Positions 5,712 through 28,432 of a stretch of DNA of 45,388 nt are shown in pieces (the first letter of the stretch is position 1; each line of letters starts with the position of its first letter). The DNA comes from Limisphaerales bacterium (GTDB taxonomy: Bacteria > Verrucomicrobiota > Verrucomicrobiia > Limisphaerales > SIBE01). The DNA lies in the NCBI GenBank assembly GCA_044225505.1, contig JBGAIN010000049.1, positions 1 through 45,388 of the forward strand. Reading direction: 5' to 3'. The notes beneath the pieces are model-generated. The model did no database searches. It saw nothing but the letters and a program-made list of their open reading frames with translations, and was not told the DNA's origin. Both the position numbers and the translations under genes were made by a program.

Positions 5712-5835
5712 CCGTAACACTGCCTCTTTCCCAGGCTCGAGAGCTCGTCCATGTCTATCGATGGACCCCTCAGCTTTCCGCGGTCACGTCGCAGCATCTC
5801 TTCGTGATGGAAAGCACCCCAACCCTCAGTTGACC

Positions 5836-13488: not shown

Positions 13489-14139
13489 CTAAAGCCGGGT
13501 CTCCAGATTGGGCAACGCCTCTGCTTGCACTAGAAACAAGTCGGATTGATCCTCCGCCAGAAGCAACCGGAAAGCAGCCCTGTTCAGCAGCGTTGACCAT
13601 TCTTTCGCCGGAGGAAGAAAATCATGACCGATGGCTCCGCCAATCTTATGGTGAAAGTTGTTTAGATGATCGCTGCCGGCGAGGTGGAGCACGGTCAAAC
13701 ATCCGCCCGGCTTGAGATGCCTGCTGATTTGACGCAAGGCGGTCGGCTGATCGCGGAAATGCGGGAACGAATTGAAGCAAAGCACGAGGTCGAACTGTCC
13801 GAGCGCGAGGGGTTCCGCTTGGCAGATGTCCGCGAGAACGAACTCCGCCTCCACCCGACGCTCGCGCGCCTTCCGCAACATCGCCGGGGAAAAATCGATT
13901 GCGTGCACCTTCCCAGGGCGGACCAAATCCGCCAGCCAAGCGGTGACCAACCCGGTGCCACAGCCGACCTCCAGCACGTCCAGGCCAGTTCGAAGCCCCA
14001 GCTTTAGCTTCAATTCATTCAAGCGTTGGAGCGTGCGAACGGGATCAGGGCCAGTCTGATCCCAAGTCGGCGCATGATGATCAAAGAAGGCGATGCGTGG
14101 ATCCTGGATCAGGCCGCGGGCGAAAGACGGATGCGTCAT
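13489..14139 (-). CDS. Class I SAM-dependent methyltransferase
   Basis: FFDHHAPTWD, motif I VLEVGCGTG, AIDFSPAML, FDLVLCFNSFPHF, LKPGG. Confidence 0.92.
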   Translation of the reverse strand: MTHPSFARGLIQDPRIAFFDHHAPTWDQTGPDPVRTLQRLNELKLKLGLRTGLDVLEVGCGTGLVTAWLADLVRPGKVHAIDFSPAMLRKARERRVEAEFVLADICQAEPLALGQFDLVLCFNSFPHFRDQPTALRQISRHLKPGGCLTVLHLAGSDHLNNFHHKIGGAIGHDFLPPAKEWSTLLNRAAFRLLLAEDQSDLFLVQAEALPNLETRL

Positions 14140-14162
14140 ACGATTTTTTGATTGCGTAACAC
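14135..14162. promoter_or_regulatory. Putative NikR operator 1
   Basis: GTCATAC-N14-GTAACAC (28 bp), overlapping the methyltransferase start codon. Confidence 0.65.
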
Positions 14163-14173
14163 CCGAGTTCGAA

Positions 14174-14201
14174 ATATTACGTGTTTCTATGTACGTAACA
14201 T
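14174..14201. promoter_or_regulatory. Putative NikR operator 2
   Basis: ATATTAC-N14-GTAACAT (28 bp, near-palindromic), overlapping the likely start of the secreted-protein gene. Confidence 0.6.
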
Positions 14202-15379
14202 CGCCTATTCACCCGGGTCAAGGTTCCTTTCGTCAACTCGTTCGCTCCGCTACGTCCTCGGCTTGGCTCGTGGCGGCATTGGCCATGTCACTGACGGTCG
14301 GCCGAGCAGAGTCGCACGCCAATCTCCAGTCCGTTAAGGTCGACGGGACCAGCGATTGGAACGGGACCTTTCCGTTCACGATTCAAGGAGTGCTGCTCTG
14401 CAATCCCGACGAAATGCTGGACTTCACTCCGAACTTTCTGCCCTGGAATGAAGGGGCCAACCAATACCGCATGGGAGGCGAATGGCAGGTCACACTCCAG
14501 GCGGTGGATGCAAACGATCGCGGCGGGACGACGTGTTGGATGGGGCAGAACTATGGAAACCAACCCTGGATCCACGACAGCGCGCTCAGTTACGCAAACG
14601 AAGCGTGGGTGTCCGAAATCCTGCGCCTGAACTTCGACCCATCGAGTCTGCATCCGTTCCGCGCGGGCGACTTAATCGAAGTCACGGTGCGCCAGGCATT
14701 ATTCTATGGTGGAAAACGCAATATCAACGAGGGGCATGACATCGACGCCGACTACAATTTCGACTTCCGGCTCGTCACCGCCAACTATGGGTTGCCGGCG
14801 CCCGAGGTCATCTCCTTAGGCAACGTCATGCAGCCGGGAGGCGACGAGGCCGATTGGAAGACCTGGCCCGCGATTTTTGATGCCAGTCGAGCCACGGGTG
14901 GGGAGCATTATCAGGGGATGCGCGTTCGGATCAATGATCTGACATTGCTCAGCACCAATGGGTGGAACGCGACGAACACCTGGAGTTCGCGCCTCTGCAC
15001 CGTCACGGACGGCAATGGCCGCTATTTCTCCCTGCGTCACCCCCGCTACAGCCTAGGGAGCGCTCCCGCCGGTGTGTTCGATGCGATAGGCATTTTCAAT
15101 CAGGAATCCGGGTCTGGAACCACTGGGACCAACGGTTACGAACTGTTTGTGCAACAAGTCCTGCCGCATGTGCCGGCGCCGGACGTGGCGATTGGGCTCA
15201 ACGTGACGGTAACTTGGCCGGTTTTCAGCGACGACTATCAGCTTGAGTGGCGCAGCAAGGTGGATGTCGGGGAATGGACACCCATGACAAACTCGGTTGT
15301 TGTGATCGACGGCAAGAAGACAGTGATCCTTCCACCGTCCAGTCCGCAACGGTTCTACCAACTACGGAAGACCAACTGA
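14189..15379 (+). CDS. Secreted hypothetical protein (possible OB-fold-like domains) with RFYR-type C-terminal module
   Basis: Signal peptide ..WLVAALAMSLTVGRA|ES; AGDLIEVT, EHYQGMRVRINDL, GVFDAIGIFNQ; tail VTWP..YQLEW..W..PQRFYQLRK. Exact start uncertain. Confidence 0.8.
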   Translation: MYVTSPIHPGQGSFRQLVRSATSSAWLVAALAMSLTVGRAESHANLQSVKVDGTSDWNGTFPFTIQGVLLCNPDEMLDFTPNFLPWNEGANQYRMGGEWQVTLQAVDANDRGGTTCWMGQNYGNQPWIHDSALSYANEAWVSEILRLNFDPSSLHPFRAGDLIEVTVRQALFYGGKRNINEGHDIDADYNFDFRLVTANYGLPAPEVISLGNVMQPGGDEADWKTWPAIFDASRATGGEHYQGMRVRINDLTLLSTNGWNATNTWSSRLCTVTDGNGRYFSLRHPRYSLGSAPAGVFDAIGIFNQESGSGTTGTNGYELFVQQVLPHVPAPDVAIGLNVTVTWPVFSDDYQLEWRSKVDVGEWTPMTNSVVVIDGKKTVILPPSSPQRFYQLRKTN

Positions 15380-15490
15380 CACGTTGGCAGATCCGCGAAA
15401 TCTATCCGGCCGCGAAAGGCTTGGCGCCCGGGGCTTCCTCTGCCCAAACGCAAGCCTCGCTCTGTTTTGGCGCCTTTTAACACCGCAAGA

Positions 15491-16504
15491 ATGAAACCAA
15501 GAAAGAAGTCGCAAAAAGCCCCTCCCATCGAAGTTTGTGGACGGGTGAGTGGCTTCATAGAACACCATTACCGGCACTTCAACGCCGCCGTCCTGGTAGA
15601 CGCGGCCCGTGCCTACCGCGAACAACTCGAATCGGGTAACCAGATGATGGTCACTCTGGCGGGGGCCATGAGTACGGCTGAGCTGGGATTGTCGCTCGCT
15701 GAGATGATTCGCCAGGACAAGGTCCACTTGATCTCCTGCACAGGCGCGAATCTCGAGGAGGACGTGTTCAATTTGGTTGCCCACGACTTTTACGAGCGCG
15801 TGCCGGGGTATCGGGAGCTCTCAGCGGTTGACGAGGAAGCGCTGCTTGAGCGCCATCTCAACCGTGTCACCGACACCTGCATCCCGGAAGGCGAAGCGAT
15901 GCGCCGGATGGAGAAGGCCATGCTGGATGTCTGGACAGCCGCGGATCGGAAGGGGGAACGCTGGTTTCCTCACGAGTTCTTCTATCAGGTCTTGAGAAGC
16001 GGCCGGCTCAAGAAACACTACCAGATTGATCCGAAGAACTCATGGATGCTAGCGGCGGCGGAGAAGAGCTTGCCGCTGATCGTGCCCGGGTGGGAAGACT
16101 CGACGCTGGGTAACATGTATGCCGCCGCGTGTCTGCGCGATGACGTCAAGAACGTTCATACGGTGCGGACGGGCATCGAATATATGCGATGGCTCGCGGT
16201 CCATTACCGGCAAGTTACCTGGCGGCGAGGGCTTGGAATGTTTCAAATCGGGGGTGGGATCGCCGGGGACTTCCCCATTTGTGTGGTGCCACTGCTCCAG
16301 CAGGACATGGGTTTTGAGACGCGCCTCTGGTCGTACTTTTGCCAGATCAGCGACTCCACTACCAGTTACGGCTCTTATTCGGGCGCCGTGCCAAACGAAA
16401 AGATCACTTGGGGCAAACTTGGCAAGGCGACGCCCAAGTTTATCATCGAGTCCGATGCGAGCATCGTCGCACCACTTATTTTCGCCTATGTCCTTGGGTG
16501 GTAA
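15491..16504 (+). CDS. Deoxyhypusine synthase family protein
   Basis: HFNAA, TLAGAMSTAELG, SCTGANLEED, IGGGIAGDF, DSTTSYGSYSGAVPNEKITWGK (catalytic Lys in WGK), SDASIVAPL. Confidence 0.93.
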   Translation: MKPRKKSQKAPPIEVCGRVSGFIEHHYRHFNAAVLVDAARAYREQLESGNQMMVTLAGAMSTAELGLSLAEMIRQDKVHLISCTGANLEEDVFNLVAHDFYERVPGYRELSAVDEEALLERHLNRVTDTCIPEGEAMRRMEKAMLDVWTAADRKGERWFPHEFFYQVLRSGRLKKHYQIDPKNSWMLAAAEKSLPLIVPGWEDSTLGNMYAAACLRDDVKNVHTVRTGIEYMRWLAVHYRQVTWRRGLGMFQIGGGIAGDFPICVVPLLQQDMGFETRLWSYFCQISDSTTSYGSYSGAVPNEKITWGKLGKATPKFIIESDASIVAPLIFAYVLGW

Positions 16505-16595
16505 GTTCCACCGGAAGTTATTCGAGTGATGCGGCTAGCTCCATCAAACCGTTCCAACCTCCGCTCGAGAACCGCAAGGAGAAACGGAAAGATCC

Positions 16596-16623
16596 GTATG
16601 ATGTTTCTTATTTGCCGTAACAC
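16596..16623. promoter_or_regulatory. Putative NikR operator 3
   Basis: GTATGAT-N14-GTAACAC: left half equals the E. coli NikR half-site GTATGA, 28-bp span, 24 bp upstream of the prepilin-ABC operon. Confidence 0.7.
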
Positions 16624-16647
16624 TGCGGAACGGATAGCCTTCGGCCA

Positions 16648-17328
16648 GTGAATGGAAAATCCCAGCCGTGCCTTTCGGGCTTCCCGGGTCTCCGGACGAA
16701 TGGGATAGGCTTCACTCTGATTGAATTGCTCGTGGTAATCGTCGTGATCGGCGTGCTGGCCAGCTTGCTTTTGCCAGCGCTTTCCATGGCAAAAGAGAAA
16801 GCCAAGGTCGCCAAGGTCCACGCGGAGCTCTACGGAGTGGGCCTTGCCTTGGAGATGTACTCAGACGATCACGAAGGTCAATTGCCGCCCGTCCGGGTGG
16901 ACTGCAACACCGATCTCTCCACTCACTGGTGCCAGTTTCCGATCGAGCTAGCCACTGACGGCTATTTGCCTCGTGGAGACAAACCTGGTTTGGCGGCTAA
17001 CATGGAAGACGTTTTTAACCGCGGACACTCCTACAAGTATGCCACCCCGGGTCCCCAATTGCTGAACGGGAGTTCGGGTGGGAACTTCAGGTTGTGGGTG
17101 CCCGATGATTTTCCAATGTGCGCGACAAATTCGGGGAAATACTACTCCACTCGCGAAGGCTCCCCAGCGCGCTGGGTGGTGTGGAGCTTGGGCCCCAAGC
17201 CAGACAGCGCGAAGACCCAGGATGATCATGCGCCGCTTACGGGCGCGAGTTGGTATCGGCGCACTCGAGACAGTGGAGTAATCGCCCGGATGTCGACCAG
17301 AGAAGGAGTGCAGCTCAAGACACCTTGA
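16648..17328 (+). CDS. Prepilin-type N-terminal cleavage/methylation domain protein (type IV pilin/pseudopilin-like)
   Basis: G|FTLIELLVVIVVIGVLASLLLPALSMAKEKAK class III signal; LEMYSDDHEGQLPP; WSLGP. Confidence 0.9.
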   Translation: MNGKSQPCLSGFPGLRTNGIGFTLIELLVVIVVIGVLASLLLPALSMAKEKAKVAKVHAELYGVGLALEMYSDDHEGQLPPVRVDCNTDLSTHWCQFPIELATDGYLPRGDKPGLAANMEDVFNRGHSYKYATPGPQLLNGSSGGNFRLWVPDDFPMCATNSGKYYSTREGSPARWVVWSLGPKPDSAKTQDDHAPLTGASWYRRTRDSGVIARMSTREGVQLKTP

Positions 17329-17337
17329 GAGGATTGA

Positions 17338-17493
17338 ATGAAGCCCCCCACACTCCTCGCTTACCTCAAAGGAATGGCCACCCGCTTGGAAGGGCAGCAA
17401 CGGAAAGGTCAGGAGATTTTCCTGCTGAAAGAGCTGCCACCGGAACATCCGGCACGAAAGTTCGCGAGAGAGATCAACCCGCAGTTCGAGTAA
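17338..17493 (+). CDS. 51-aa microprotein within the operon
   Basis: GAGAGGA RBS then MKPPTLLAYLKGMATRLEGQQRKGQEIFLLKELPPEHPARKFAREINPQFE*; fills the gap between the prepilin and SBP genes. Confidence 0.5.
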   Translation: MKPPTLLAYLKGMATRLEGQQRKGQEIFLLKELPPEHPARKFAREINPQFE

Positions 17494-17514
17494 CTGCTTC
17501 AGACACTCGTTATT

Positions 17515-18372
17515 ATGTCAGCTCTTCGAATCTTCCGCATTCCAGCAAGAATGATCTGGGGTGCAGGACTGCTCGTTCTGTTCCTTCTAGCTCCGGCTTG
17601 CCAGCGTCCCTCGGAGTCCAGCGAGGGTCTGGCGCTCGCGACAACGACTTCCTACCTCGAAGCTGCGGTGCGAGATTTGCTTGGCGATCCGGTGCGCGTG
17701 GTGCGTCTGGCTGAACCAGGCACCTGTCCCGGCCATTTCGACGTCCGCCCAAGCCAGGTGCAGGAGCTTCGGAGTTGTGCCGTCGTCTTTCGGTTCGATT
17801 TCCAGAAATCGTTGGATGCCAGATTCGCGGATGCCGGGACCAATCGCCCACCGGCGGCGGAGATCGCCATTCGCGGCGGGATGTGCCGGCCGGATAGCTA
17901 CCTTTCCGTCTGCCATCAGGCGGCCGACCACCTGGTCCGATTGAAACTGCTCGCTCAGACGAACGCCGAGTCGCGTCTGCACTCCATTTCCAACCGGCTC
18001 GACGCTCTATCGCGTGTTGTCGCGAATCGGGTTCGGCAAGCCGGACTCGGCGGTGCTTCCGTAATCACGAGTGGTCATCAGCGCGATTTTTGCCAGTGGC
18101 TCGGTCTCGATGTCGTGGCCACTTTCCGTGCGGCGGACGCGGCGAGCATCCGCGAGATTCAAGAGACCATTGACGTCGGCAAGCTTGCTCAAATCAAATT
18201 TGTGATCGGCAATCTTCCCGAGGGCCATCGCACCGCCGACGCGCTCGCCGAGCGGCTCAAAACCCGCGTCGTCGTCTTCGAGAATTTCCCCGCGTTAAGG
18301 GATGGTCGAGTGTCATTCGACGAAATGCTCACCGCCAATACCGATGCTCTTTTGAAGAGTGCCACCCCATGA
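17515..18372 (+). CDS. Metal ABC transporter substrate-binding lipoprotein (ZnuA/cluster A-I like)
   Basis: Lipobox-like LLAPAC; ATTTSYLEAAVRDLLGD; PGTCPGHFDVRPSQVQEL; adjacent to ATPase and permease. Confidence 0.85.
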   Translation: MSALRIFRIPARMIWGAGLLVLFLLAPACQRPSESSEGLALATTTSYLEAAVRDLLGDPVRVVRLAEPGTCPGHFDVRPSQVQELRSCAVVFRFDFQKSLDARFADAGTNRPPAAEIAIRGGMCRPDSYLSVCHQAADHLVRLKLLAQTNAESRLHSISNRLDALSRVVANRVRQAGLGGASVITSGHQRDFCQWLGLDVVATFRAADAASIREIQETIDVGKLAQIKFVIGNLPEGHRTADALAERLKTRVVVFENFPALRDGRVSFDEMLTANTDALLKSATP

Positions 18373-19169
18373 CATCACCGGCCGTTGAGATCCGCCGCCT
18401 GGCTGTCCATCGTGGTGGCCGGTGTCTCTTGGATGTCGAACATGCCCAACTCGATCAGGGCAATGTGGTCGGGCTCATGGGGCCGAATGGGGCTGGCAAA
18501 ACCACCCTGCTCCGAGCGTGCCTCGGATTGATTGTGCCGACGGGCGGGGAGATCGTCGTCTTGGGCGAGAGTGTTCCCTTCTTGCGCCTGTCCGCCTTGG
18601 CGCGTCTTCGACGCCGGATTGGATTCGTCCCCCAAATGCCGCCTGTTCGTAGCGAGATTCCAATAACCGTTCGCGAGGTGGTGGTGATTGGACGAACGGC
18701 CCACCGGGGTTTGTTCCATCGACTGTCGGGCGACGACTGGGACCTTGCGGACCAGTGGATCGATCGCTTGGGTCTCAGTCCGCTGGCTGATCGTGCCTTT
18801 GGGCAAATCTCTGGCGGTGAACAGCGCAAGACCATCATTGCCCGGGCTATGGCACAGGAGCCAGAACTGCTCCTGTTCGATGAACCGACCGCCAACCTCG
18901 ATCTCGGCTGGCGGGAACGCATCGTCGCTCTGATCCAAAGCCTCCATGAGCAAACCAAGATCAGCGTGGTCCTGGTTTGCCACGAACTTGAGGTTCTGCC
19001 GCCTTGTTGTCGGCAGGTCGTCTTGTTGGAAGCGGGCCGTGTCACCGCGGCCGGCCCTCCGGAAACCGTTTTCACGACAGAACGAGTGCGGAGACTCTAT
19101 GGGGCGAACCTGAGGACAGTACACCAGGACGGACGCCACGCGACCCTTCCGGGAGGCGCGTATGATTGA
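18369..19169 (+). CDS. Metal ABC transporter ATP-binding protein (ZnuC/MntB-like)
   Basis: Walker A GPNGAGKT, signature ISGGEQ, Walker B LLLFDEPTANLD, H-loop VCHE. Confidence 0.95.
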   Translation: MTSPAVEIRRLAVHRGGRCLLDVEHAQLDQGNVVGLMGPNGAGKTTLLRACLGLIVPTGGEIVVLGESVPFLRLSALARLRRRIGFVPQMPPVRSEIPITVREVVVIGRTAHRGLFHRLSGDDWDLADQWIDRLGLSPLADRAFGQISGGEQRKTIIARAMAQEPELLLFDEPTANLDLGWRERIVALIQSLHEQTKISVVLVCHELEVLPPCCRQVVLLEAGRVTAAGPPETVFTTERVRRLYGANLRTVHQDGRHATLPGGAYD

Positions 19170-19992
19170 CCTGGTCTTTTGGTCGCCAGTCATGGTGGGG
19201 GGGGCGTTGGCCGGAGCTTCGAGCGGCCTGCTCGGAACGTTCATCGTTGGGATGCGCATTCCGTTCCTGGGCGTCTGCGTTGCCCACGCGGCATTAGCCG
19301 GGGCTGTTTTCGGCGGGTTGTGCGGACTGGAAGGCCAGCAACTTCTATTGCCGGGTCTCGCCGGAGCCATCCTGACAGCACTGGCCCTGGGCCTGCTGAA
19401 CCCAGGGCAAGCGCGACTTGACGACAACACCGTCCTGAGCTTTCTGTTCTCCGCCACGATGGGCCTCGCGTTTCTGGGCATTGGACTGTATGGAATCCTC
19501 GGCAAGAGCGATCACGATGTGCGCAGCTTGCTCTGGGGCAGTCTCAACTTCTGCCGCTGGAAAGACGTGCGGCTGATGCTTGGCTCGTCCTTGGCTCTGG
19601 CGGCTTTTATCGTCGTTTTCTTCAAGGAGCTGCGAGCGATCCTCTTTTCCCGTATGGAGGCTGAGGCCGTGGGCATCCGCGCGACCGCAGTCTGGACCGG
19701 CTTCCTCATTCTTACCGCTGTGAACCTGACCGTGAATTTTCAAACCGTGGGCGGGCTGATGATCTACAGCCTGATGAGCAATCCGGCAGCGGCCGCGATG
19801 CAAGTGAGCCGCGGGTGCCGTCAGGTCCTTTTGCTGTCGGCGACGTTTGGGGCAGTTAGCGGTCTGGGCGGTTTCCTGGTGGCCGCGGCGACGGATCTGC
19901 CCAGCGGCGCTGTGATCGTGCTGACCTCTTCCGCTCTGCTCATGGGCACCGTTTTGGTCCGTCGCCACCTTGATGGGGTGAAGCCATCGTGA
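19162..19992 (+). CDS. Metal ABC transporter permease (ZnuB/ABC-3 family)
   Basis: GVCVAHAALAG, SLLWGS, FFKELRAILFS..AEAVGI, QTVGGLMI, DLPSGAVIV. Confidence 0.93.
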   Translation: MIDLVFWSPVMVGGALAGASSGLLGTFIVGMRIPFLGVCVAHAALAGAVFGGLCGLEGQQLLLPGLAGAILTALALGLLNPGQARLDDNTVLSFLFSATMGLAFLGIGLYGILGKSDHDVRSLLWGSLNFCRWKDVRLMLGSSLALAAFIVVFFKELRAILFSRMEAEAVGIRATAVWTGFLILTAVNLTVNFQTVGGLMIYSLMSNPAAAAMQVSRGCRQVLLLSATFGAVSGLGGFLVAAATDLPSGAVIVLTSSALLMGTVLVRRHLDGVKPS

Positions 19993-20098
19993 AGTCGGGT
20001 CGGTTCGGCCACGGCGGTTTTCTCTGAATAAGGGGGGACACTCAGCTGATGAGCTGGCTATTTCATTCTGTCAGAGAATCTCATAGTCTTGGACCTAC

Positions 20099-20527
20099 AT
20101 GAAACAGGAACAAGCAGCCCGCTTTAGCGTCTCACTGCCACCCAAGCTCCTTCGGGACCTTGACCAGATGACGCAGGAAAAGGGCTATGACAACCGGTCC
20201 CTGGCCGTTGCAGACATGATCCGAGCGCACCTGGTCGAACACCGCCAGAACTACGGCGAAACCGAGATCGCTGGAACGATCACTCTGGTATACGACCATC
20301 ACAAGCAGAACGTGCAGTCGACGCTGACCGACATCCAACATGACCATCACGATGTCATCATCTCCTCGCTCCATGTGCACTTGGATCATCACAATTGCCT
20401 CGAGGTTCTGGCCGTCCGCGGAAAGGCGCTCGTCATCAAGAGAATTTCTGATGCGTTGATCGGTGCCAGAGGCGTCAAACATGGCAAGCTGACGATCACC
20501 ACGACCGGCAAGGAGTTGGCCGTATGA
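20099..20527 (+). CDS. nikR: Nickel-responsive transcriptional regulator NikR
   Basis: RHH RFSVSLP..GYDNRSLAVADMIR; ACT-like domain GTITLVYDHH, QHDHH, SLHVHLDHHNCLEV, GVKHGKL. Confidence 0.97.
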   Translation: MKQEQAARFSVSLPPKLLRDLDQMTQEKGYDNRSLAVADMIRAHLVEHRQNYGETEIAGTITLVYDHHKQNVQSTLTDIQHDHHDVIISSLHVHLDHHNCLEVLAVRGKALVIKRISDALIGARGVKHGKLTITTTGKELAV

Positions 20528-20767
20528 GCTGTCGACGGGTGGTCCAGCCTCAGCTGACCCTTCTCATCCCAGCCTTAAAGCTTGCGTAACACTCGCAAAG
20601 TCGAAAGCATGCCTCTGGTCTCCGAATTTGAAGCATGGCTCACCTTGCTCGCAGGGCACTTAGGCCGGGCCGTTGAAACCTGCAGGTCTGGTTTGAGCGA
20701 GTGCATCCGAATCGGCCCCGCCGGCGTAGAGAAAGAAATGACCTATGTTTGATTTCGGTGCGTGGTG

Positions 20768-21316
20768 ATGAAACTCTACCGCCAGCTGACCTGCCTTTAT
20801 CTCGCCTGTTGTCTCGGGTTGGCTGGCGCAGCGGGAATCAGTCCCTCCTTCCATCGATTGATCGAACACGGGGGGCGCGGTGCTCCACACACGCATTTCG
20901 GAGTTTCTTCTAGCGCCGTTGAATCGTCCCCATCGACCGACCCTGGGAGCGGCGCTTTCCCTTGGCATAGTTCTTCTTTTTTGCTCTCAGAAGTCCATCA
21001 ATTCAACAGGTTAGTCGTTCCAGAGGATGGGCTCGACCAACGTTCGAGTCCTCGTTCTTTACGTCCGAAGCAGGACCTTCACAATTTCTTGGAAGCCGAT
21101 CCTGCGGGAAAGCCAACTCCTTCCGACCAAGCGCCTCGCCACCATCATGACAGTTTGCCACAGAGGATCGCGAGCGGTCTTCTCGATCTGCACCTGGATT
21201 ATCCGTTGCTTTGTCATCCTAGGGGGCTTCTGGCTCGTCGGTCGTCGCCTTCCGATGTTCCCGCCGTAGTCCGAGATTGGGATATTCAAACGGCCCCGCG
21301 TGGTCCCCCCGGTTGA
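20768..21316 (+). CDS. DUF2946/CruR-like His-rich leader protein ending in RGPP
   Basis: N-terminal hydrophobic segment, SPSFHRLIEH, PHTH, RHHHD, C-terminus TAPRGPPG*; directly upstream of a TonB-dependent receptor. Confidence 0.75.
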   Translation: MKLYRQLTCLYLACCLGLAGAAGISPSFHRLIEHGGRGAPHTHFGVSSSAVESSPSTDPGSGAFPWHSSSFLLSEVHQFNRLVVPEDGLDQRSSPRSLRPKQDLHNFLEADPAGKPTPSDQAPRHHHDSLPQRIASGLLDLHLDYPLLCHPRGLLARRSSPSDVPAVVRDWDIQTAPRGPPG

Positions 21317-21523
21317 CTTCGTTCGGTTCCCTTAAGAATTTCCAAGAACTGTCAGGCCAGAGTCCAAATCGGCTTGCGTCAGCCCTAACGCCAACGCCTA
21401 AGCCTTCCTGTGCGCGTCCTATTGTATCGGGCTCAACAAACGGCCCCTCTTCGATAGCGCATGCTCCGTCGCCTGAGAGGTTCAAGTCCCAGAATTCCAA
21501 TCCAGTCAACATGAAAACCATCT

Positions 21524-23743
21524 ATGAGAAACTTCAGAAACTTAGTTTTTCGGCGGGCCAAAACGAGCGCTCGGCCGATACCATTGCCCACCCGATTCCA
21601 CGCCGCAGCCCTCGTCCTGGCCTGGGCGAGTTGCAGAATGATTCAGGCCGAAGATAGCAGCTTGACCAATCCGCCGTCCGCGGCGGCGACTGGTCTCTCC
21701 ACGAATCAATCAATCCGGTTGCCTGAAATGGTAGTGCAAGGGCGCCAGGACAGTCTTTTGAACATATCGGACTCAGCCACGCAGGGTACGGTCGGAGCCG
21801 CGCAAATCGAGGCTCGTCCATTGCTTCGCTCAGGCGAGATCCTGGAGACGGTGCCCGGCGTAATCATCACTCAGCATGCGGGTGGCGGAAAGGCTAACCA
21901 ATACTTCCTCCGCGGTTTCAACCTGGACCATGGGACAGACTTTGCGACGTTCTTGGATGGCATGCCGCTGAACCTGCCGACCCACGGACATGGACAAGGG
22001 TATTCGGACATGAACATCGTGATCCCCGAATTAGTGCAGCGAGTGAACTACGAAAAGGGTGTTTACTATCCAGAAAATGGGGACTTTTCGTCCGCCGGTT
22101 CGGCGCGGTTGGACTTTTACAAGGTGCTCCCGCAGAGTCTGGCCCTTGCGGAAGGCGGCATGTACGGGTATTTCCGCGGCGTTTTCGCCGAATCGCCCAA
22201 GGTCGGGCCAGGCAACCTTCTCTTTGGCGGTGAGTTCTCCCATTCGGATGGGCCTTGGGAACGCCCCGACGATTACCAAAAGTTCAACGGCATTGTGACC
22301 TACAGCCAGGGGGACGCAGCCAATGGCTTTAGCGTCACGGGCCGCGCCTATCATGGCAAGTGGAATTCGAGTGACCAAGTAGCGGAGAGTGCCATCGAGA
22401 GCGGCTTGGTGCCGTTTTTCGGTTCTCTGGACAACACAACGGGAGGGGACTCTCAACGCTATAGCCTCCAAGGCGAGTGGCACCGCGCCGACGAACGGTC
22501 CGCGACCAAAGTGATGGCCTATGGCTTCTACTATGATTTGGACCTGTTCTCCGACTTCACCTATTACCTGGCCGACCCTCTCCGCGGAGATCAGTTCGAA
22601 CAGACTGATAAACGGGGTGTGGTGGGCCTCGACGCCAACCATACCCTGTTCGATCAGTGGTGGGGCAAAGAAGTGGAAAATACGTTCGGTCTTCAAGTGC
22701 GGAATGACTGGATCAACAACGGGTTGTTTCAGACCCAAAACAAAGATCGGGTCGATAAAATTGATGTGACGCATAATGATTTTCCGCTATCGGCCACCAC
22801 CCGCAAAGATGACATCACCGAAACCAGCGTTGGCTTTTATTTGCAGAACAAGATCCAATGGGCGGACCGGTTCCGTAGTGTGGCGGGGGTCCGCGGCGAC
22901 ATCTACAATTTTGATGTCAGTAGTGATCGTTCGCAGAATTCGGGCTCCGAGCTTTCCGCGATTGGCAGCCCGAAACTGACCCTGGTCGCTGGGCCTTGGG
23001 CCAAAACCGAAGTCTACGTTCAAGGGGGATTAGGATTCCACAGCAACGATGGCCGTGGTGTTTCGACTCGAGTCGATCCCGTGACCGGCGTCGGCACAAA
23101 TCTCGATGGAGATGCCGTGGTGCGCGCTGACCCGCTCGTTCAAACCTACGGAGCCGAGATAGGAGTGCGGACATTGGCTGTCCCAGGATTGCAAAGCACG
23201 CTCTCTTTCTGGTGGCTGGACGTCGATTCTGAGTTGGTTTTTGCGGGAGACGCTGGCACGACCGAGGCGAGCAGGCCCAGTCGCCGATATGGCCTGGAGT
23301 TCGCCAATTACTATAACTTGACCAAACATCTGACCCTGGACGCCGATCTTTCCTTCTCGCACGCTGAGTTCAGAGATCGCGCTCCGGAGGGAGATCGCAT
23401 CCCAGGCTCTATCGAGAGCGTTGTTTCAGCCGGGATTACCTATCGCGCGGACCGTGGTTTCTTTGCCGGATTGCGCCTGCGTTACTTCGGACCGAGACCT
23501 CTGATCGAGGATAACAGTTTCCGATCCAGCGAAACCATCCTCCTGAACGCGGCGGTGGGTTACCAGTTCAACAAGACGTGGACGTTGACAGCAGAAATCC
23601 TGAATCTTCTCGATCGCCGCGATCACGACATTGATTACGCGTATGAATCGAGAGTTCAACCAGGAGACCCTTCCTTCGATCAGATTCATTTCCACCCCGT
23701 GGAACCAATTCAAGCCAGGTTTGGGATCACGGCCAGGTTCTAG
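21524..23743 (+). CDS. TonB-dependent outer-membrane receptor, probable Ni/Co specificity
   Basis: TonB box EMVVQG; plug ILETVPGVIITQHAGGGKANQYFLRGFNLDHGTDF..HGHGQGYSD; NLLD; terminal IHFHPVEP..GITARF. Confidence 0.95.
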   Translation: MRNFRNLVFRRAKTSARPIPLPTRFHAAALVLAWASCRMIQAEDSSLTNPPSAAATGLSTNQSIRLPEMVVQGRQDSLLNISDSATQGTVGAAQIEARPLLRSGEILETVPGVIITQHAGGGKANQYFLRGFNLDHGTDFATFLDGMPLNLPTHGHGQGYSDMNIVIPELVQRVNYEKGVYYPENGDFSSAGSARLDFYKVLPQSLALAEGGMYGYFRGVFAESPKVGPGNLLFGGEFSHSDGPWERPDDYQKFNGIVTYSQGDAANGFSVTGRAYHGKWNSSDQVAESAIESGLVPFFGSLDNTTGGDSQRYSLQGEWHRADERSATKVMAYGFYYDLDLFSDFTYYLADPLRGDQFEQTDKRGVVGLDANHTLFDQWWGKEVENTFGLQVRNDWINNGLFQTQNKDRVDKIDVTHNDFPLSATTRKDDITETSVGFYLQNKIQWADRFRSVAGVRGDIYNFDVSSDRSQNSGSELSAIGSPKLTLVAGPWAKTEVYVQGGLGFHSNDGRGVSTRVDPVTGVGTNLDGDAVVRADPLVQTYGAEIGVRTLAVPGLQSTLSFWWLDVDSELVFAGDAGTTEASRPSRRYGLEFANYYNLTKHLTLDADLSFSHAEFRDRAPEGDRIPGSIESVVSAGITYRADRGFFAGLRLRYFGPRPLIEDNSFRSSETILLNAAVGYQFNKTWTLTAEILNLLDRRDHDIDYAYESRVQPGDPSFDQIHFHPVEPIQARFGITARF

Positions 23744-23770
23744 ATATTCAACTCCAAAAGCGACCACTGG

Positions 23771-24538
23771 ATGGCAACATCCGAGACATCAAAGCCGATT
23801 GCTGCCGCTGCTTCCGGGGCGGCGCAATCGGCTGTCCTTTCTCTCGCCAGAATGGAGCGGCTCAAGGCAGCTGATGAATCGAACGATCTTGCGCTCTTGA
23901 CGCTCCTGCTTTGGGTGTTTTTCCTTTGTATCGGCGTCCTGGGGTTTTCGCTCCACTATGAGCGCCCGGTCGCTGGAATTCCGCCTGTGGAACAAATTGT
24001 CGCAGAACAATTGCAGGTTGACCTGGCGCCCGAACCTCTTGACCAGGCGCCTCTCAAACCCCCGACCTTCGAACCGCCGGAACTCCCTGACGAGCCTGGT
24101 CCCATCGCCGTCATGGAAGCTATTGCTGTTGCCCAGCCAAGTCCGGCTTTGGCATTTGCACTTCCGGTGGAAGGCCCCACTCGGGTTGTCGACGCAAAAC
24201 GTGCCGCCTATGTCGCACCCGCAACAACCGCCCGGATAGTCACCGCTCCGTCCGACCTGTCACCGCCCGTGCAACAGCTTACGTTTGGGCAGGGGGAAGG
24301 AAAACAGGTGGCCCCGGAATACCCTCCTGCAGCCCGACGGTTGGGACAGGAGGGAACTGTTTTGGTGCGGATTTCCGTCGGCCAAGATGGACGTGTACTG
24401 AAAGCCGAGGCCAAGGTGCCTTCTCCCTGGCCGCTCCTCAACGAAGCTTCCGTGCGGATCGTCCGTGAGCGTTGGCGATTTCATCCTGGGCCAGCGCGCC
24501 TGTATGAAGTTGCCATCCGCTTTGAAATCGTAAAATGA
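23771..24538 (+). CDS. tonB: Energy transducer TonB
   Basis: TM with SLH, Pro-rich linker, C-terminal PEYPPAARRLGQEGTVLVRISVGQDGRV..RWRF. Confidence 0.9.
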   Translation: MATSETSKPIAAAASGAAQSAVLSLARMERLKAADESNDLALLTLLLWVFFLCIGVLGFSLHYERPVAGIPPVEQIVAEQLQVDLAPEPLDQAPLKPPTFEPPELPDEPGPIAVMEAIAVAQPSPALAFALPVEGPTRVVDAKRAAYVAPATTARIVTAPSDLSPPVQQLTFGQGEGKQVAPEYPPAARRLGQEGTVLVRISVGQDGRVLKAEAKVPSPWPLLNEASVRIVRERWRFHPGPARLYEVAIRFEIVK

Positions 24539-24557
24539 CCTCTGCAATTTCTGACCT

Positions 24558-25268
24558 ATGACACCGATGCTGGCTCATCTTGCCCTGGACTTCTTCCTAA
24601 AGGGTGGACTCCTCATGTGGCCGCTGCTCGTCTGCCTCCTTGCCGCGCTGTTCGTGGTGCTTGAGCGCGCGGTGTGGTGGTGGAGCCTAAAGCGACGGTG
24701 CCGGCCGGAAGCGCTTGCCGAGACATTTAGCGCCATCAGTGAAGGGGATTTTACGCGCGCGGTCCGGCTGAGCGACAACCCCGAAGACCCGTACTTGCTC
24801 ACAATCCAGGCAGGCCTGTTGCACGCACACGCTTCGATGCTTGGGGCGATGCAGCTTCGCGCCACGGAGGAACTCGAATGTGCTGAGAAACGGCAATGGA
24901 TTCTGGGCACGTTTATAACCTTGGCGCCGCTCCTGGGGTTGATGGGAACTGTCACCGGCATCATGCATTCGTTTCACTTCGTCGGCAGCGAGGAGTTGGC
25001 GGCCGTCAAAGTCAGCGGCGGCATTGCCGAGGCGCTCATCGCTACGGCGTGTGGTCTTGGGATCGCCATCCTCTGCCTGTTACCTTTCAACCTTTTCAAT
25101 CGAAAGCTGGCGCAGTTTCGACTCCGGCTCGAGCGCACGATTAATCACACGGAATTGCTCGTGGAATCCGCCAAGCACCACGGGCACGATCTGGAGTCAT
25201 TTGCCAGGGACCGGGCATTACGAACCGACCGTGAACCAGCGGCGCTCAAAGGTGAGGCGAGCCGCTAA
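24558..25268 (+). CDS. exbB: MotA/TolQ/ExbB proton channel
   Basis: [38 protein letters not shown]. Confidence 0.93.
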
Positions 25269-25287
25269 GCACAAGAAAGAATTCCCT

Positions 25288-25716
25288 ATGCCTGTTAAGC
25301 TTGGCTCGAAGCTGCCCACCGAAAACGAGGCGCGCATCGAGATTATTCCGCTCATCGACATCATGTTCTTTCTCCTCGCCGCTTTCATGCTCGTCAGCTT
25401 GAGCATGGTGAACTTGAAGAGCATTAAGGTGAACTTGCCCACCGCAACAGCTGCCACCCTAGAAACCAAGCGAAACTTCGTCACGATTTCCGTGGACCGC
25501 GCCGGGGCCGCTTACTTCGACAAGCAACTCGTGGGGCCAAACGAACTGACCCAGCGCCTTTCTGCCTGGCGCAAGACCAACGAAGAAGTGCGAGTTTTCA
25601 TCAGCGGCGATGCCGACGCGCGCCATGGGGACATTATTCACGTGCTTGATTTGGTGCGCTCGACTGGCGTAGAGAGAATCGCCTTCGAAATCCGCCCCGC
25701 TACGGCGTCTCGCTAA
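25288..25716 (+). CDS. exbD: Biopolymer transporter ExbD
   Basis: IEIIPLIDIMFFLLAAFMLVS, VNLPTA, ISGDADARHGDIIHVLD; start MPVKLG at 25288. Confidence 0.93.
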   Translation: MPVKLGSKLPTENEARIEIIPLIDIMFFLLAAFMLVSLSMVNLKSIKVNLPTATAATLETKRNFVTISVDRAGAAYFDKQLVGPNELTQRLSAWRKTNEEVRVFISGDADARHGDIIHVLDLVRSTGVERIAFEIRPATASR

Positions 25717-25723
25717 ACAGGAC

Positions 25724-26227
25724 ATGAAGCGGCTCGATTACTTGAATTTGATCGGCGTGCTCGCGCTCGCCGCGCTCTGCGTCGCGCAGTGGCGTCGCGA
25801 CCGTCAATTGAACCTTGAAATCAATCAGTTAGAGAACGTTCGATTGCAACAGGAAGCTAAAATCGTTGAGCAAGAACGGTCGATGCACGGACTTGACGAA
25901 GATCTTGTGCATTTCAAAGAGCAGTTCCTCAAGGCGGAAACAGCCACGACCGAGTCCGGGCAGAAGCTCCGCGCCGCCGAGCGTGAAATCCGTCAATTGA
26001 CGCTGGAACGAGATCAGCTAAAGGGTAGCATCAACAACTGGGCCTCGGCTGTTACGGCACGAGACGAGCGGTTGACGGAAGCCAACGCGCAGATCCGTCG
26101 ACTCGCCGACGAGTTGAATGCTTCCATTCGCAAGTTCAACGAACTCGCCACGAATTACAATGCCACGGTGAAAGATCTAAATGACCTTCGTTCCCGAGTC
26201 GCGCAACCAAAGCCAGCCAGTCAATAG
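25724..26227 (+). CDS. Single-TM long coiled-coil protein
   Basis: TM NLIGVLALAALCVAQW then ~140 aa of heptad-rich sequence. Confidence 0.8.
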   Translation: MKRLDYLNLIGVLALAALCVAQWRRDRQLNLEINQLENVRLQQEAKIVEQERSMHGLDEDLVHFKEQFLKAETATTESGQKLRAAEREIRQLTLERDQLKGSINNWASAVTARDERLTEANAQIRRLADELNASIRKFNELATNYNATVKDLNDLRSRVAQPKPASQ

Positions 26228-26270
26228 AAACTCGGCAAGGCCCCTCGTTCACTATAAACATCCCTTCAAC

Positions 26271-26900
26271 ATGGACCTAGACGACAAATCTCAGCCGCGG
26301 ATCACCTCGAATGCGAAAAGCAATCGGCTGGTCTTTTATCTGTTGTTCGCTTTCTTCACGCCGTTAACTGCCATGGCCCATACCGAGAGTGGCACCGCGG
26401 GAGGTTTTCTCAGCGGATTTAACCACCCGCTGACCGGCCTGGATCACATCGTTGCCATGGTCGCCGTGGGGCTGTGGGGTGCGTTCCTTGGACCCCCGGC
26501 CATGTGGATCCTACCGGTGGTATTCCCGGTGGTGATGGCACTTGGAGGAGCCTTGGGGATTCTTGGTGTGCCCATCCCAAAAGTTGAGATCGGGATTGCC
26601 CTCTCCGGCGTCATCCTGGGCCTAATGGTGGCTTTCGCCGCTCGGCCTTCCTTAAGAATAGCCGCGGTGATTGTCGGCTTTTTCGCCATATTCCACGGCC
26701 ACGCACACGGGACAGAGCTTCCAGAATCTGCGAATGCGCTGACCTTCGCCATTGGTTTCGTCGTTTCCACCGGACTTCTTCATTTGAGCGGTATCGCCCT
26801 GGGCCTTCTGGTGCGCTGGCCTTGGGGTAAAATCGTTGTGCGCATGGGCGGCGCCGCCATCGCCATGATTGGCTTCGGCTTTCTTTTCAAGATTCTCTAA
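26271..26900 (+). CDS. HupE/UreJ family nickel transporter
   Basis: AMA|H, GFNHPLTGLDHIVAMVAVGLW, FAIFHGHAHGTE, GLLHLSG. Confidence 0.93.
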   Translation: MDLDDKSQPRITSNAKSNRLVFYLLFAFFTPLTAMAHTESGTAGGFLSGFNHPLTGLDHIVAMVAVGLWGAFLGPPAMWILPVVFPVVMALGGALGILGVPIPKVEIGIALSGVILGLMVAFAARPSLRIAAVIVGFFAIFHGHAHGTELPESANALTFAIGFVVSTGLLHLSGIALGLLVRWPWGKIVVRMGGAAIAMIGFGFLFKIL

Positions 26901-26901
26901 C

Positions 26902-27528
26902 ATGAACCGATTCCCGTTGTCCCAACACTCCCGCTTGCTGTGCTTTTTGTTCCTTCTTGTCTTGCCAGTCACCGGTCACGCGCATTCAGTCGGCACTGGA
27001 GGAGAGATTGCCAGTGGGATGCTTCACCCCCTGCTCAATCCCAGCCATGTTCTAATCCTCGTCGGTCTGGGATTGGTGATTGGCCAACATTCTCCGTTGG
27101 ACCTAGAAACACCGGTGAAAATTTCAATGCCGGTTTCTGCCTTGGCTCTGCTGCTGACAACGACCGGCGCGATTCCAAACGTTTATCAGCCAATTCTAGC
27201 CTCGATCGCACTCGCCGCCGGAGTTCCCGTCGCGCTGGAAAAAGCGCTTTCGCCTTTGGTGTGCAACGTTTTTGTGGGCGTTGGCATATTCGCTATAGGA
27301 CTTGATTCCGGGGTTGAAGGCGGATCTCCGCTAGGAACATTCAAGACTCTCTCCATGACCTGGGTGACGTTGAATCTCGTGGTCTTCAATCTGGCTTTTT
27401 ACGTATCGGCGATGACCAAGAAGAAGTGGACAAAGGTCGGTATCCGAGTCTTGGGCTCATGGCTGATCGCCATTTCGTTGCTGGTCTTGGCGTTTTACTT
27501 CAAGAAACATCGTTCGGTCGGTGGCTAA
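26902..27528 (+). CDS. Divergent HupE/UreJ-like membrane protein
   Basis: GHA|H, GMLHPLLNPSH retained; FHGxAHG absent; RVLGSWL C-terminus. Confidence 0.75.
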   Translation: MNRFPLSQHSRLLCFLFLLVLPVTGHAHSVGTGGEIASGMLHPLLNPSHVLILVGLGLVIGQHSPLDLETPVKISMPVSALALLLTTTGAIPNVYQPILASIALAAGVPVALEKALSPLVCNVFVGVGIFAIGLDSGVEGGSPLGTFKTLSMTWVTLNLVVFNLAFYVSAMTKKKWTKVGIRVLGSWLIAISLLVLAFYFKKHRSVGG

Positions 27529-28432
27529 TGCGTTCAGGAAGCTTTTGCTTGAGCGATAACACTGGCGCAAACAGATCACCATGCTGCTTAACGCGCTCTA
27601 AAACGTCGGCCGCTTCAAAAGTCAGAAGTCCCGCCTTTTTCTTTTTCAACGCGGTCTGAACCTCGGTCCAATCGATCGGAGTGGAAACGGTGGGATGATC
27701 CTTGGCGCGAAGCGAGTAGACATTGACCGTCGTTTTGTGGTCGTCATTTTGACTCCAATCCACAAGCACTTTGCCACCCCGGAGATGTTTTTGCATCTTG
27801 GACACCACGAGCTTTGGGGATTCTCTTTCCATCGCTTCGGCAAGGGCATGCGCCCAAGCCTTTGTTTTTTCGTAACTCGTGGGAGTGTTCAGCGGAACGT
27901 AAACTTGAAGCCCTTTCGAACCTGAGGTCTTGGGAAAGCTCTTGAGCTTCAGCGCATCGAAGACTTCCTTCAGCCGAAGCGCAACGGCACAGCACGTCAG
28001 AATGTCCGCCGGCGGTCCGGGATCGAGATCAAAGGCCAGCGCTGTTGGTCGGAGCATGTGCGTCGCCTTATGCAGGAAGGTATGGAGCTCAAGGTCCGCC
28101 AGATTCGCTGCCCAGACGAGTGCGGACAGGCTGTTCATCAGGCAATAGTTGACTTCGCCTCCATGAGACTTCGCTACGGTCTGCGTTTTGACCCACTTTG
28201 GCCGGCTGGACGGGCACTGCTTTTCGTAAAAGAAAAAGCCTTCAACTCCGTCCGGATAGCGCTTCAAGGTGATCGGCCGATCCTTAAGGTGGGGAAGCAA
28301 GACCTCAGAGACCCGAATGTAATAGTCGATGACGTCACCTTTGGTAAACCCTGCCTTTGGGTAAAACACCTTGCCGAGGTTGGACACTTCAACGGTGGTT
28401 CCTCCCACGGAAAGCTTTGTTTTTTCAGCCAT
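27500..28432 (-). CDS. LigD-type primase-polymerase domain protein (standalone)
   Basis: VSNLGKVFYP, TKGDVIDYY, TLKRYPDG, FYEK, FDLDP, KTSGSKGLQVYVPL, VLVDWSQN, YSLRA..PTVSTP. Confidence 0.93.
   Translation of the reverse strand: MAEKTKLSVGGTTVEVSNLGKVFYPKAGFTKGDVIDYYIRVSEVLLPHLKDRPITLKRYPDGVEGFFFYEKQCPSSRPKWVKTQTVAKSHGGEVNYCLMNSLSALVWAANLADLELHTFLHKATHMLRPTALAFDLDPGPPADILTCCAVALRLKEVFDALKLKSFPKTSGSKGLQVYVPLNTPTSYEKTKAWAHALAEAMERESPKLVVSKMQKHLRGGKVLVDWSQNDDHKTTVNVYSLRAKDHPTVSTPIDWTEVQTALKKKKAGLLTFEAADVLERVKQHGDLFAPVLSLKQKLPERISHRPNDVS

Follow-up and report, generated by a model that had tools for sequence, protein, structure and literature searches.

The DNA analysed here is an entire contig of 45,388 bp (JBGAIN010000049.1; hereafter the window) from a soil-type Verrucomicrobiota bacterium of the Limisphaerales, whose genome comprises 9.04 Mb in 342 contigs. 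Pfam and NCBIfam scans of the open reading frames (ORFs) at 13489-28432 gave the gene map in Table 1, in which the gene for the nickel-responsive repressor NikR stands between two groups of genes. An earlier reading of the letters alone (the original prediction) had taken the whole of 13489-27528 for one coordinated, multi-layer nickel-acquisition island. Its gene inventory was correct, every gene that it named being present; the region, however, consists of two adjacent units and is not one island. Unit 1 (13489-20527) comprises a divergent methyltransferase gene followed by genes for a family-less secreted protein (here called P428), a deoxyhypusine/homospermidine-synthase-like (DHS-like) enzyme, a GspG-like pilin, a ZnuA-type lipoprotein, an ATPase, an ATP-binding cassette type 3 (ABC-3) permease and NikR. 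Unit 2 (20762-27528) comprises genes for a His-rich protein ending in RGPPG, a TonB-dependent receptor, TonB, ExbB, ExbD, a coiled-coil protein and two HupE/UreJ permeases. In keeping with a demand for nickel, the genome encodes a urease alpha subunit, LarA-type proteins and, at three loci, large subunits of NiFe hydrogenases.

Table 1. Features of the two units, with positions in the window and the evidence for each
Feature	Position	Strand	Evidence and remarks
S-adenosylmethionine-dependent class I methyltransferase, divergent from P428	13489-14139	-	PF13649, 3.4e-24
NikR-type box O1	14135-14162		12/14 matches; overlaps methyltransferase start codon; relatives arranged alike
NikR-type box O2	14174-14201		12/14 matches; overlaps probable P428 start codon (14189)
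P428, secreted protein	14189-15379 (frame open from 14093; 428 codons)	+	Signal peptide; family-less
DHS-like enzyme	15467-16504	+	PF01916, 134 bits (cut-off 27)
NikR-type box O3	16596-16623		12/14 matches; 25 nt upstream of pilin-like gene
GspG-like prepilin-type protein, enlarged head domain	16648-17328	+	PF07963
ZnuA-family (cluster A-I) binding lipoprotein	17515-18372	+	PF01297, 56.8 bits
ABC transporter ATPase	18369-19169	+	PF00005, 5.9e-29, 101.9 bits
ABC-3 family permease	19162-19992	+	PF00950, 1.3e-36, 126.9 bits
NikR nickel-responsive repressor	20099-20527	+	NF003381, 188.1 bits (cut-off 105); PF08753, 1.5e-33; PF01402, 18.7 bits, slightly below its cut-off of 20.5
Stretch of 1 kb after nikR	20528-21523		Contains ORF 20762-21316
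His-rich, probably exported protein, RGPPG-stop end	20762-21316 (probable start ATG 20768)	+	184 codons
C-rich spacer between RGPP ORF and receptor	21317-21523	+	C/G 1.60
TonB-dependent receptor	21524-23743	+	PF00593, PF07715
TonB	23771-24538	+	PF03544, 6.4e-15
ExbB	24558-25268	+	PF01618, 5.5e-25
ExbD	25024-25716 (start probably near 25300)	+	PF02472, 5.6e-27, at ORF residues 100-225 (last ~126 codons)
Membrane-anchored coiled-coil protein	25724-26227	+	Only weak coiled-coil-type matches; homologue after ExbD in L097
HupE/UreJ permease, copy 1	26181-26900 (probable start 26271)	+	PF04955, 2e-56, 190.8 bits
Divergent HupE/UreJ-like protein, copy 2	26869-27528 (probable start 26902)	+	PF04955, 1.6e-6, 28.2 bits (cut-off 23)

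Unit 1 recurs in other genomes. Two sets of loci with P428 relatives were assembled, 37 in total: 11 with full-length relatives at 41-49% identity, from 11 of 400 sampled genomes of the phylum, and 26 closer ones at 52-78% identity, from a scan of one genome per species that led to metagenome-assembled genomes of Verrucomicrobiota, Limisphaerales and Pedosphaerales. Many of the 26 closer contigs end inside the cassette, so that gene counts there are lower bounds. In the 11-locus set (loci are cited by L-numbers) the pilin-like gene directly follows P428 in all 11 cases and nikR lies immediately upstream in 10, the sole locus without adjacent nikR (in genome G050) having it 12 kb off on the same contig. 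The methyltransferase belongs to the cassette in five of the 11 and the lipoprotein, ATPase and permease in three; L029-L031 have the operon P428-pilin-lipoprotein-ATPase-permease-methyltransferase. Seven loci of one family show a minimal unit of nikR-P428-pilin, with enolase on the nikR side in the four whose neighbours were scanned (L033, L034, L036, L037). A NikR_C domain is found in 136 of 401 genomes including our own (135 of the 400 sampled), and all 11 of the P428-bearing sampled genomes carry NikR.

Among the 26 closer loci the usual order is that of the window minus the DHS-like gene, a methyltransferase on the minus strand being followed by P428-pilin-lipoprotein-ATPase-permease-nikR. 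Matches were obtained to the pilin in 22, the methyltransferase in 13, nikR in 12, the lipoprotein in 11 and the DHS-like enzyme in two; the ATPase and the permease likewise match in 11, these being the lipoprotein loci except for L046, which is cut within the lipoprotein gene, and L062, which is without a permease match. Thus the synteny with nikR that the original prediction had set as its check was found for the methyltransferase, P428, pilin and ABC-3 genes, and the operator-type boxes described below travel along with them. The DHS-like gene, which had been put forward as a possible part of the system, is in the locus in only two of the 37 (L041, L054), where it follows P428 and is followed in each case by a second methyltransferase gene. 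Judged by sequence, P428 and the pilin-like protein are the constant members of a NikR regulon for nickel import in the 37 relatives and the window.

NikR itself is by its sequence a genuine nickel sensor. H81, H92, H94 and C100 are at least 90% conserved among 22 homologues in the arrangement H-x11-H-x-H-x5-C, a spacing (11/2/6) that matches the high-affinity nickel site of the Escherichia coli protein. With the pattern GTRTTAC-N14-GTAAYAC and a threshold of at least 12 of 14 positions, the window contains exactly three sites (O1, O2 and O3), all at promoter positions, those of the methyltransferase, P428 and pilin-like genes; the three NikR-like boxes of the original prediction are thereby upheld. 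Over the whole 9.04-Mb genome there are 22 such sites, fewer than in base-shuffled genomes, and 14 of the 19 others than these fall within long ORFs. The remaining possibly intergenic ones, near PLD, ECF sigma factor, PQQ/EF-hand and CotH genes, were considered and set aside, none being nickel-related. A strict E. coli NikR pattern with up to three mismatches likewise gave no enrichment (11 matches, 7 expected). Because counts alone are not enriched, the evidence for the boxes is their clustering, their promoter positions and their conservation in other genomes.

The 37 P428 loci (600 kb) hold 23 boxes, every one of them within about 200 nt upstream of a P428, nikR or pilin gene. Counterparts of O2 are perfect 14/14 boxes in L049, L053 and L063; counterparts of O3 precede the pilin gene in L051 and L062, where, as in the window, a gap parts the pilin from P428. 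In the closer relatives the region between methyltransferase and P428 genes has two 28-bp box elements side by side, the family with the three-gene unit has a dyad TTATTAC-N14-GTAATAA upstream of nikR that overlaps the nikR start codon, and L030 retains a 13/14 box upstream of P428 even though its nikR is 12 kb distant. Both the boxes and the closeness of nikR recur in more than one class of the phylum. O1-O3 are putative NikR operators of the dyad type in the promoters of their targets. In unit 1, then, we observe known gene families, operator-type boxes, conserved synteny and co-inheritance with nikR. Scans for sigma-70 promoters and terminators around the boxes and in the gap between nikR and the receptor yielded nothing useful, and Rfam at gathering thresholds gave zero matches across the window. 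An inverted repeat, GTCAAGG...GGCTTGG, lies at 14217-14268 within the region coding for the P428 signal peptide; in the relatives L040-L065 an inverted repeat GTCAAGCC...GGCTTGG occurs 20-30 nt past box O2 in 18 of 23 leaders, the pairs being invariant and hence showing no covariation.

P428 has no match in Pfam or NCBIfam, and its 781 homologues are all unnamed. The ESM Atlas placed the proteins searched only in unnamed clusters of their own, with DUF5689 (0.77) and DUF6769 (35% of one cluster) as weak leads. The mature protein has about 360 residues, and its AlphaFold model, with a predicted local distance difference test (pLDDT) score of 86.5 and a predicted template modelling score of 0.73, suggests two OB-fold domains and a C-terminal beta-sandwich. 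Its fold matches are the MCM N-terminal domain (Z 9.6), RPA (8.8), YgiW (8.3) and CcmE (7.1), with a root-mean-square deviation (rmsd) of about 3 over some 90-100 aligned residues. Past the signal peptide lies a conserved ETH motif, whose invariant His stands 3-7 residues beyond the point of probable cleavage. Similarity to the termini of giant proteins from the phylum (4325, 2615 and 984 residues in open frame, among others) is seen over the last ~90 residues of P428. Capture at the cell surface, the role that the original prediction gave to the secreted protein, is a guess.

The pilin-like protein scores above the cut-offs for prepilin motifs (PF07963, 24.3 bits, cut-off 21.2; TIGR02532, 25.2 bits, cut-off 16.3). 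Its model (pLDDT 87.9) is predicted to lie nearest to EpsG (Z 8.1, rmsd 2.3, 98 aligned) and PulG (Z 7.0). Relatives are abundant, with 6325 matches among 8000 scored candidates, many of them probably through the generic N-terminus. Processing of the pilin in this host is feasible, since the genome has one prepilin peptidase and six secretin matches; it also has about 118 ORFs of prepilin type, in which G|FTLIELL is followed by some 247 residues (median). Prediction of a complex between mature P428 and the pilin head gave a score of 0.49 (runs of 0.02, 0.49 and 0.74) against 0.00 for the best control, which the tool rates as weak support; a passing score of 0.60 or less was seen for 18 of 157 solved complexes and for both of the two mismatched pairs, among 215, that passed. 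The runs share at least 45% of contacts, and the partner has a pLDDT of at least 82. Between the pilin and lipoprotein genes a 51-codon ORF (17338-17493, plus strand) has a coding-like codon-position G+C of 0.63/0.37/0.67; in relatives this junction is only about 40-60 nt. In L044 a second, divergent pair (5354-5793), P428-like at 34% and pilin-like at 46%, lies 4.5 kb upstream of the main cassette.

Downstream of this pair, the binding lipoprotein, ATPase and permease families of a ZnuA/ABC-3 (cluster A-I) importer stand together in one operon. The lipoprotein has a lipobox-like LAPAC and conserves C71, H74, D76, C133 and C193 among 13 homologues. These residues comprise the motif GTCPGHFD and two further Cys (C133, C193), conserved in the window copy and 12 homologues, with no obvious His set; such a Cys-bearing set is presumably unlike those of the Zn or Mn proteins of the ZnuA family. 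The DHS-like enzyme falls far under all seven equivalog cut-offs (best 115.8 against 450). We regard it as an extra, divergent paralogue because a second deoxyhypusine-synthase-family gene (G000:C146:2377-3282) scores higher on Pfam in the same search (215.8 bits, against 133.8 for the window copy). It is tempting to speculate that a small ligand may be made or modified by the methyltransferase, joined in three genomes by the DHS-like enzyme, since these share operators with the pair.

The receptor of unit 2 carries in its plug region the motif H-(G/A)-H-G-Q-G-Y, which is invariant in 21 of 21 orthologues and bears out the His-plug receptor that had been predicted; it has no close solved structure, the best being YncD and PqqU (E 3e-9). 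In HupE copy 1 an N-terminal His comes directly after the signal peptide, and there are a GFNHPLTGLDH motif of the HPxxGxDH type and an FHGHAHG motif; copy 2 keeps the N-terminal His and is missing FHGHAHG. Receptor orthologues at 40-74% identity were found in 17 loci from 17 of the 400 genomes. Only L097 repeats the arrangement HupE, receptor-TonB-ExbB-ExbD-coiled-coil, and L092 has TonB-ExbBD nearby; otherwise the neighbours are heterogeneous and mostly family-less. In L105 (11150-13793) the orthologue is preceded by an unknown protein of 403 residues, a pilin-like protein of 204 residues and an unknown protein of 263 residues, which hints that pilin-like proteins accompany receptors more widely. 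Membership of these neighbours in the P428 family was considered and rejected, profile comparison giving a probability of 1% and only the generic pilin N-terminus matching. Upstream of the orthologue in L091 (~9330-9350) a palindrome, TTATTACCAGTAACAT, consists of two words like NikR half-sites, 2 nt apart. Beyond unit 2, an unrelated LigD primase-polymerase gene (27500-28432, minus strand; PF21686, 2e-87) extends into the 3' end of HupE/UreJ copy 2.

The gene that heads unit 2 is of special interest. Its product ends in APRGPPG-stop (21299-21316), the only occurrence of RGPP in a long ORF of the region. A HMMER search of 1.84 billion representatives found 104 clusters of homologues, 49 of them at E ≤1e-10, and this family overturned the possibility that the ORF is non-coding, to which its codon-position G+C had pointed. 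In an alignment of 48 sequences a hydrophobic N-terminus is followed by SPxLHxLIEHGGxGxxHxH, a His-rich middle, PxHxHHSLxQLL and an invariant R-(G/A)-P-P, with the stop codon 1-5 residues on; P28, H31, H36, H43, H45, H127, G139, R180, P182 and P183 are invariant (the last three in 48 of 48) and H129 nearly so. Among six loci of the family from metagenomes, a receptor relative of the nearest kind (58-67% identity) is the next gene in all four that are informative (L111, L112, L113, L115), about 145-260 nt downstream, L114 and L116 being too short to show that gene; in the window the distance is 207 nt, on the same strand. With a profile hidden Markov model of the family, neither the 17 loci of receptor orthologues nor the rest of our genome gave a further copy, and 400 genomes of the phylum gave only two weak partial matches. 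The spacer is likewise C-rich in two homologous loci (C/G of 1.32 and 1.66), and its predicted RNA fold is no more stable than those of shuffled sequences (z -0.22). The translational control by an RGPP leader that the original prediction proposed thus survives in part: a conserved family does stand upstream of this receptor type, but the motif is the end of a 184-codon ORF and not of a short leader.

According to PMC12992588, RAPP and RGPP are robust arrest motifs that cluster at the C-termini of small secretory proteins, and such proteins are enriched upstream of genes for TonB-dependent receptors; our protein falls within the <300-residue frame used there. In PMC9426467, CruR of Bordetella is described as a copper-responsive control on a receptor gene that works by arrest at RAPP and termination by Rho. 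PMC9973294 reports His-only CutF-like proteins adjoining HupE/UreJ genes, for which its authors suggest nickel or cobalt. By analogy, the RGPP protein fits the CruR/CutF class as a candidate arrest peptide. We place it as one that works like these proteins and not as a member, because it is without DUF2946 (no Pfam match at E ≤0.01) and is longer than the CutF-like filter. Unit 2 is probably a TonB-dependent route into HupE permeases governed by this His-rich arrest peptide, and its metal is probably nickel or cobalt.

It might be held, in keeping with the original prediction, that all genes of 13489-27528 form one nickel-scavenging machine, in which the receptor imports, P428 and the pilin relay, and the ABC-3 and HupE transporters take in the metal. 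The genes from P428 to the second HupE-like gene are contiguous on a single strand with nikR between the two halves; HupE/UreJ is a nickel/cobalt permease family (PMC11247825); and just after the nikR stop codon, at 20582-20592, an 11-mer, TTGCGTAACAC, repeats the right half-site of O1 (14152-14162) letter for letter, its partner half-site being absent at operator spacing. Nevertheless, the comparative data speak against this interpretation. No match to the receptor, TonB, ExbB, ExbD, coiled-coil protein or HupE was found in the 26 closer loci, and in the 11-locus set unit 2 is represented only by an ExbB match (27% identity) in L039, where Pfam finds ExbB and two ExbD downstream. Conversely, the 17 receptor loci (310 kb) have no box at ≥12/14, no nikR nearby and no P428-family gene, the generic pilin-like match in L105 being the only resemblance, and in L111 and L112 the RGPP ORF and receptor form a pair alone among housekeeping genes. 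No NikR box accompanies unit 2 in the window either, with none even at ≥11/14 between nikR and the receptor. A single machine is, therefore, rather unlikely. That the two units stand side by side in this genome may have a functional meaning; the comparative data do not show one system.

The explanation that we favour, with moderate confidence, is that two adjacent nickel-acquisition units lie here under differing controls, one being a NikR regulon and the other governed by an RGPP arrest peptide. In unit 1, when nickel is scarce NikR would leave its three 28-bp operators and so derepress divergent and tandem transcripts for the methyltransferase, for P428 and the DHS-like enzyme, and for the pilin, lipoprotein, ATPase, permease and NikR; repression would correspondingly be exerted by nickel-loaded NikR. 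P428 would be exported by its signal peptide, and the pilin-like protein inserted in the inner membrane and cleaved by prepilin peptidase. The two would contact each other in a periplasmic or envelope-spanning nickel-handling complex, which would bind nickel or a nickel chelate and pass it inward to the ABC-3 importer by way of its ZnuA-type lipoprotein with conserved Cys and His; where the locus is minimal, the recipient would be a transporter whose genes lie elsewhere. In unit 2 the gene order and the motif are observed, and by analogy with the copper-responsive CruR the nascent protein may stall its own ribosome at RGPP. Metal bound by the exported His-rich part would alter the stall and hence the expression of the receptor operon.

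Several points weigh against this explanation. The box pattern was derived after these promoters had been viewed, and at ≥11/14 the window is not enriched (10 strand hits against a shuffle mean of 7.5); the absence of a NikR box from unit 2 counts here as well. Potential metal ligands are few, P428 having the invariant H75 and H215 and one nearly invariant Cys and the pilin-like protein one conserved Cys and zero His. The OB matches of P428 are generic (Z 7 to 9.6), scores under about 8 being common according to the notes on the tool, and the usual ligands of OB folds are nucleic acids or sugars. Of the three complex runs one reached only 0.02, and four of the 26 closer loci have P428 without a pilin match. 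To our knowledge, the metals of characterised ZnuA/ABC-3 systems are Zn, Mn and Fe, and not Ni. In unit 2, the codon-position G+C of the RGPP ORF (0.65/0.52/0.53) is non-coding-like, its 184 residues exceed the filter of <150 given for CutF-like proteins (PMC9973294), and a His-rich sensor could just as well respond to Zn, Co or Cu.

The scarcity of conserved His and Cys in P428 and the pilin also bears on whether the pair carries nickel at all. The two could be nickel-regulated without being nickel-carrying, as a secreted or surface protein with a pseudopilin adaptor, for example an enzyme-like or adhesive factor or a nickel-sparing substitute. Such a role would accord with the recurrence of the P428 beta-sandwich at the termini of giant proteins in this phylum, with the many roles that ~118 prepilin-type ORFs in one genome imply, and with the minimal nikR-P428-pilin cassettes that have no transporter. 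On the other side, about a third of the loci join the pair to a metal ABC importer, always in the order P428-pilin-lipoprotein-ATPase-permease, and nikR abuts the pair (upstream in seven loci of the 11-locus set, downstream in seven of the 26-locus set) with no third conserved partner seen. We consider this alternative slightly less probable than a single machine.

Pilins take part in DNA uptake in other bacteria, and the top fold matches of P428 are OB folds that bind single-stranded DNA, such that the pair might be a device for uptake of nucleic acids or glycans with an incidental link to NikR; this is most improbable in view of the NikR adjacency and boxes conserved across classes of the phylum, of cassettes in which no competence or glycan genes are seen and of the periplasmic OB proteins YgiW (Z 8.3) and CcmE (Z 7.1), which match about equally well. 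Just as improbable is that unit 1 is devoted to a metal other than nickel (Co, Zn or Cu), which its transporter would handle and its NikR-like regulator would sense, for despite a lipoprotein and permease of Zn/Mn/Fe-type families, and conserved Cys unusual for the ZnuA family, the repressor passes the NikR equivalog and conserves all four residues of the high-affinity nickel site.

Returning to two nickel-acquisition units, a bolder version can be sketched, which we advance tentatively and think doubtful as a whole. A GspG-like, NikR-repressed pseudopilin would hold a secreted tandem-OB protein that captures nickel or a chelate of it, the latter possibly made by the DHS-like enzyme and methyltransferases, and the two would feed a Cys/His ZnuA-like importer; with the adjacent His-rich RGPP peptide, the CruR/CutF class would gain its first member that senses nickel. 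If the pseudopilin part of this is true, the large unexplained families of pilin-like proteins in the Planctomycetes-Verrucomicrobia-Chlamydiae (PVC) group would have a role in acquiring a nutrient metal.

Nickel acquisition by Verrucomicrobiota is poorly known; a 2009 survey (PMC2667541) records that the sole genome of the phylum then at hand had a nickel enzyme and no recognised Ni/Co transporter. From the window and the 37 related loci a NikR regulon emerges in which two protein families recur throughout, both unannotated and both represented in metagenomes by hundreds to thousands of sequences. Should the P428-pilin pair handle nickel, an OB-fold family would gain a function and one of the many PVC pilin-like proteins its first concrete role. 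The RGPP protein, in turn, is a candidate for sensing of Ni or Co by translation arrest, an idea raised so far only from gene neighbourhoods (PMC9973294). In the literature searched we found no pilin or OB protein assigned to a nickel regulon, no NikR regulon centred on a pseudopilin and a secreted protein of OB-fold type, no ABC-3 type importer under NikR, and no report of this His-rich RGPP family ahead of a receptor-HupE operon.

The kinds of system to which these parts belong are known: NikR regulons, nickel receptors with their own TonB, HupE permeases, and upstream ORFs ending in RAPP or RGPP. The closest parallel for unit 2 is CruR-CrtA(BfrG)-PepSY_TM of Bordetella pertussis, together with the CutF-like sensors. 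In both, a TonB-dependent receptor operon is headed, across a spacer of about 200 nt, by the gene for a small protein (probably exported in our case) that has a putative metal-binding motif and ends in R(A/G)PP, and some CrtA loci have their own TonB/ExbBD (PMC12914433), as here. In contrast to CruR, the RGPP protein has His-only motifs in place of CXXC and 184 residues, and the inner-membrane partners downstream are HupE/UreJ and not PepSY_TM.

Within unit 1, P428 resembles the periplasmic OB-fold ligand carriers of the YgiW/BOF family, CcmE and CusF in being exported and in its predicted OB folds, but has two of these and a beta-sandwich and no sequence relation to the carriers; CusF is absent among the fold matches listed. 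The pilin-like protein shares with GspG (EpsG, PulG) the G|FTLIELL motif with Glu5, the long N-terminal helix and the beta-sheet head, yet it is about 80 residues longer, lies outside any gsp operon and scores below the GspG equivalog (TIGR01710, 46.7 bits; cut-off 88.85). As in E. coli NikR-nikABCDE, the repressor gene adjoins the target importer and the boxes are 28-bp dyads of the GTATGA-N16-TCATAC type, O3 reading GTATGA-N16-TAACAC. Like the NikR regulons known from comparative genomics (NikMNQO, NiCoT, HupE/UreJ, and FrpB4/FecA3 of Helicobacter pylori with ExbB/ExbD/TonB), this genome has a receptor, TonB/ExbBD and HupE, although here the receptor module is without a detectable NikR box and the importer is of the ABC-3/ZnuA type and not NikABCDE or NikMNQO. 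What sets unit 1 apart from these regulons is its invariant pair, an unannotated protein of predicted OB folds and one that resembles a pilin, often with a methyltransferase; by whatever mechanism we infer for the pair, P428 and the pilin look like unrecognised parts of bacterial nickel acquisition.

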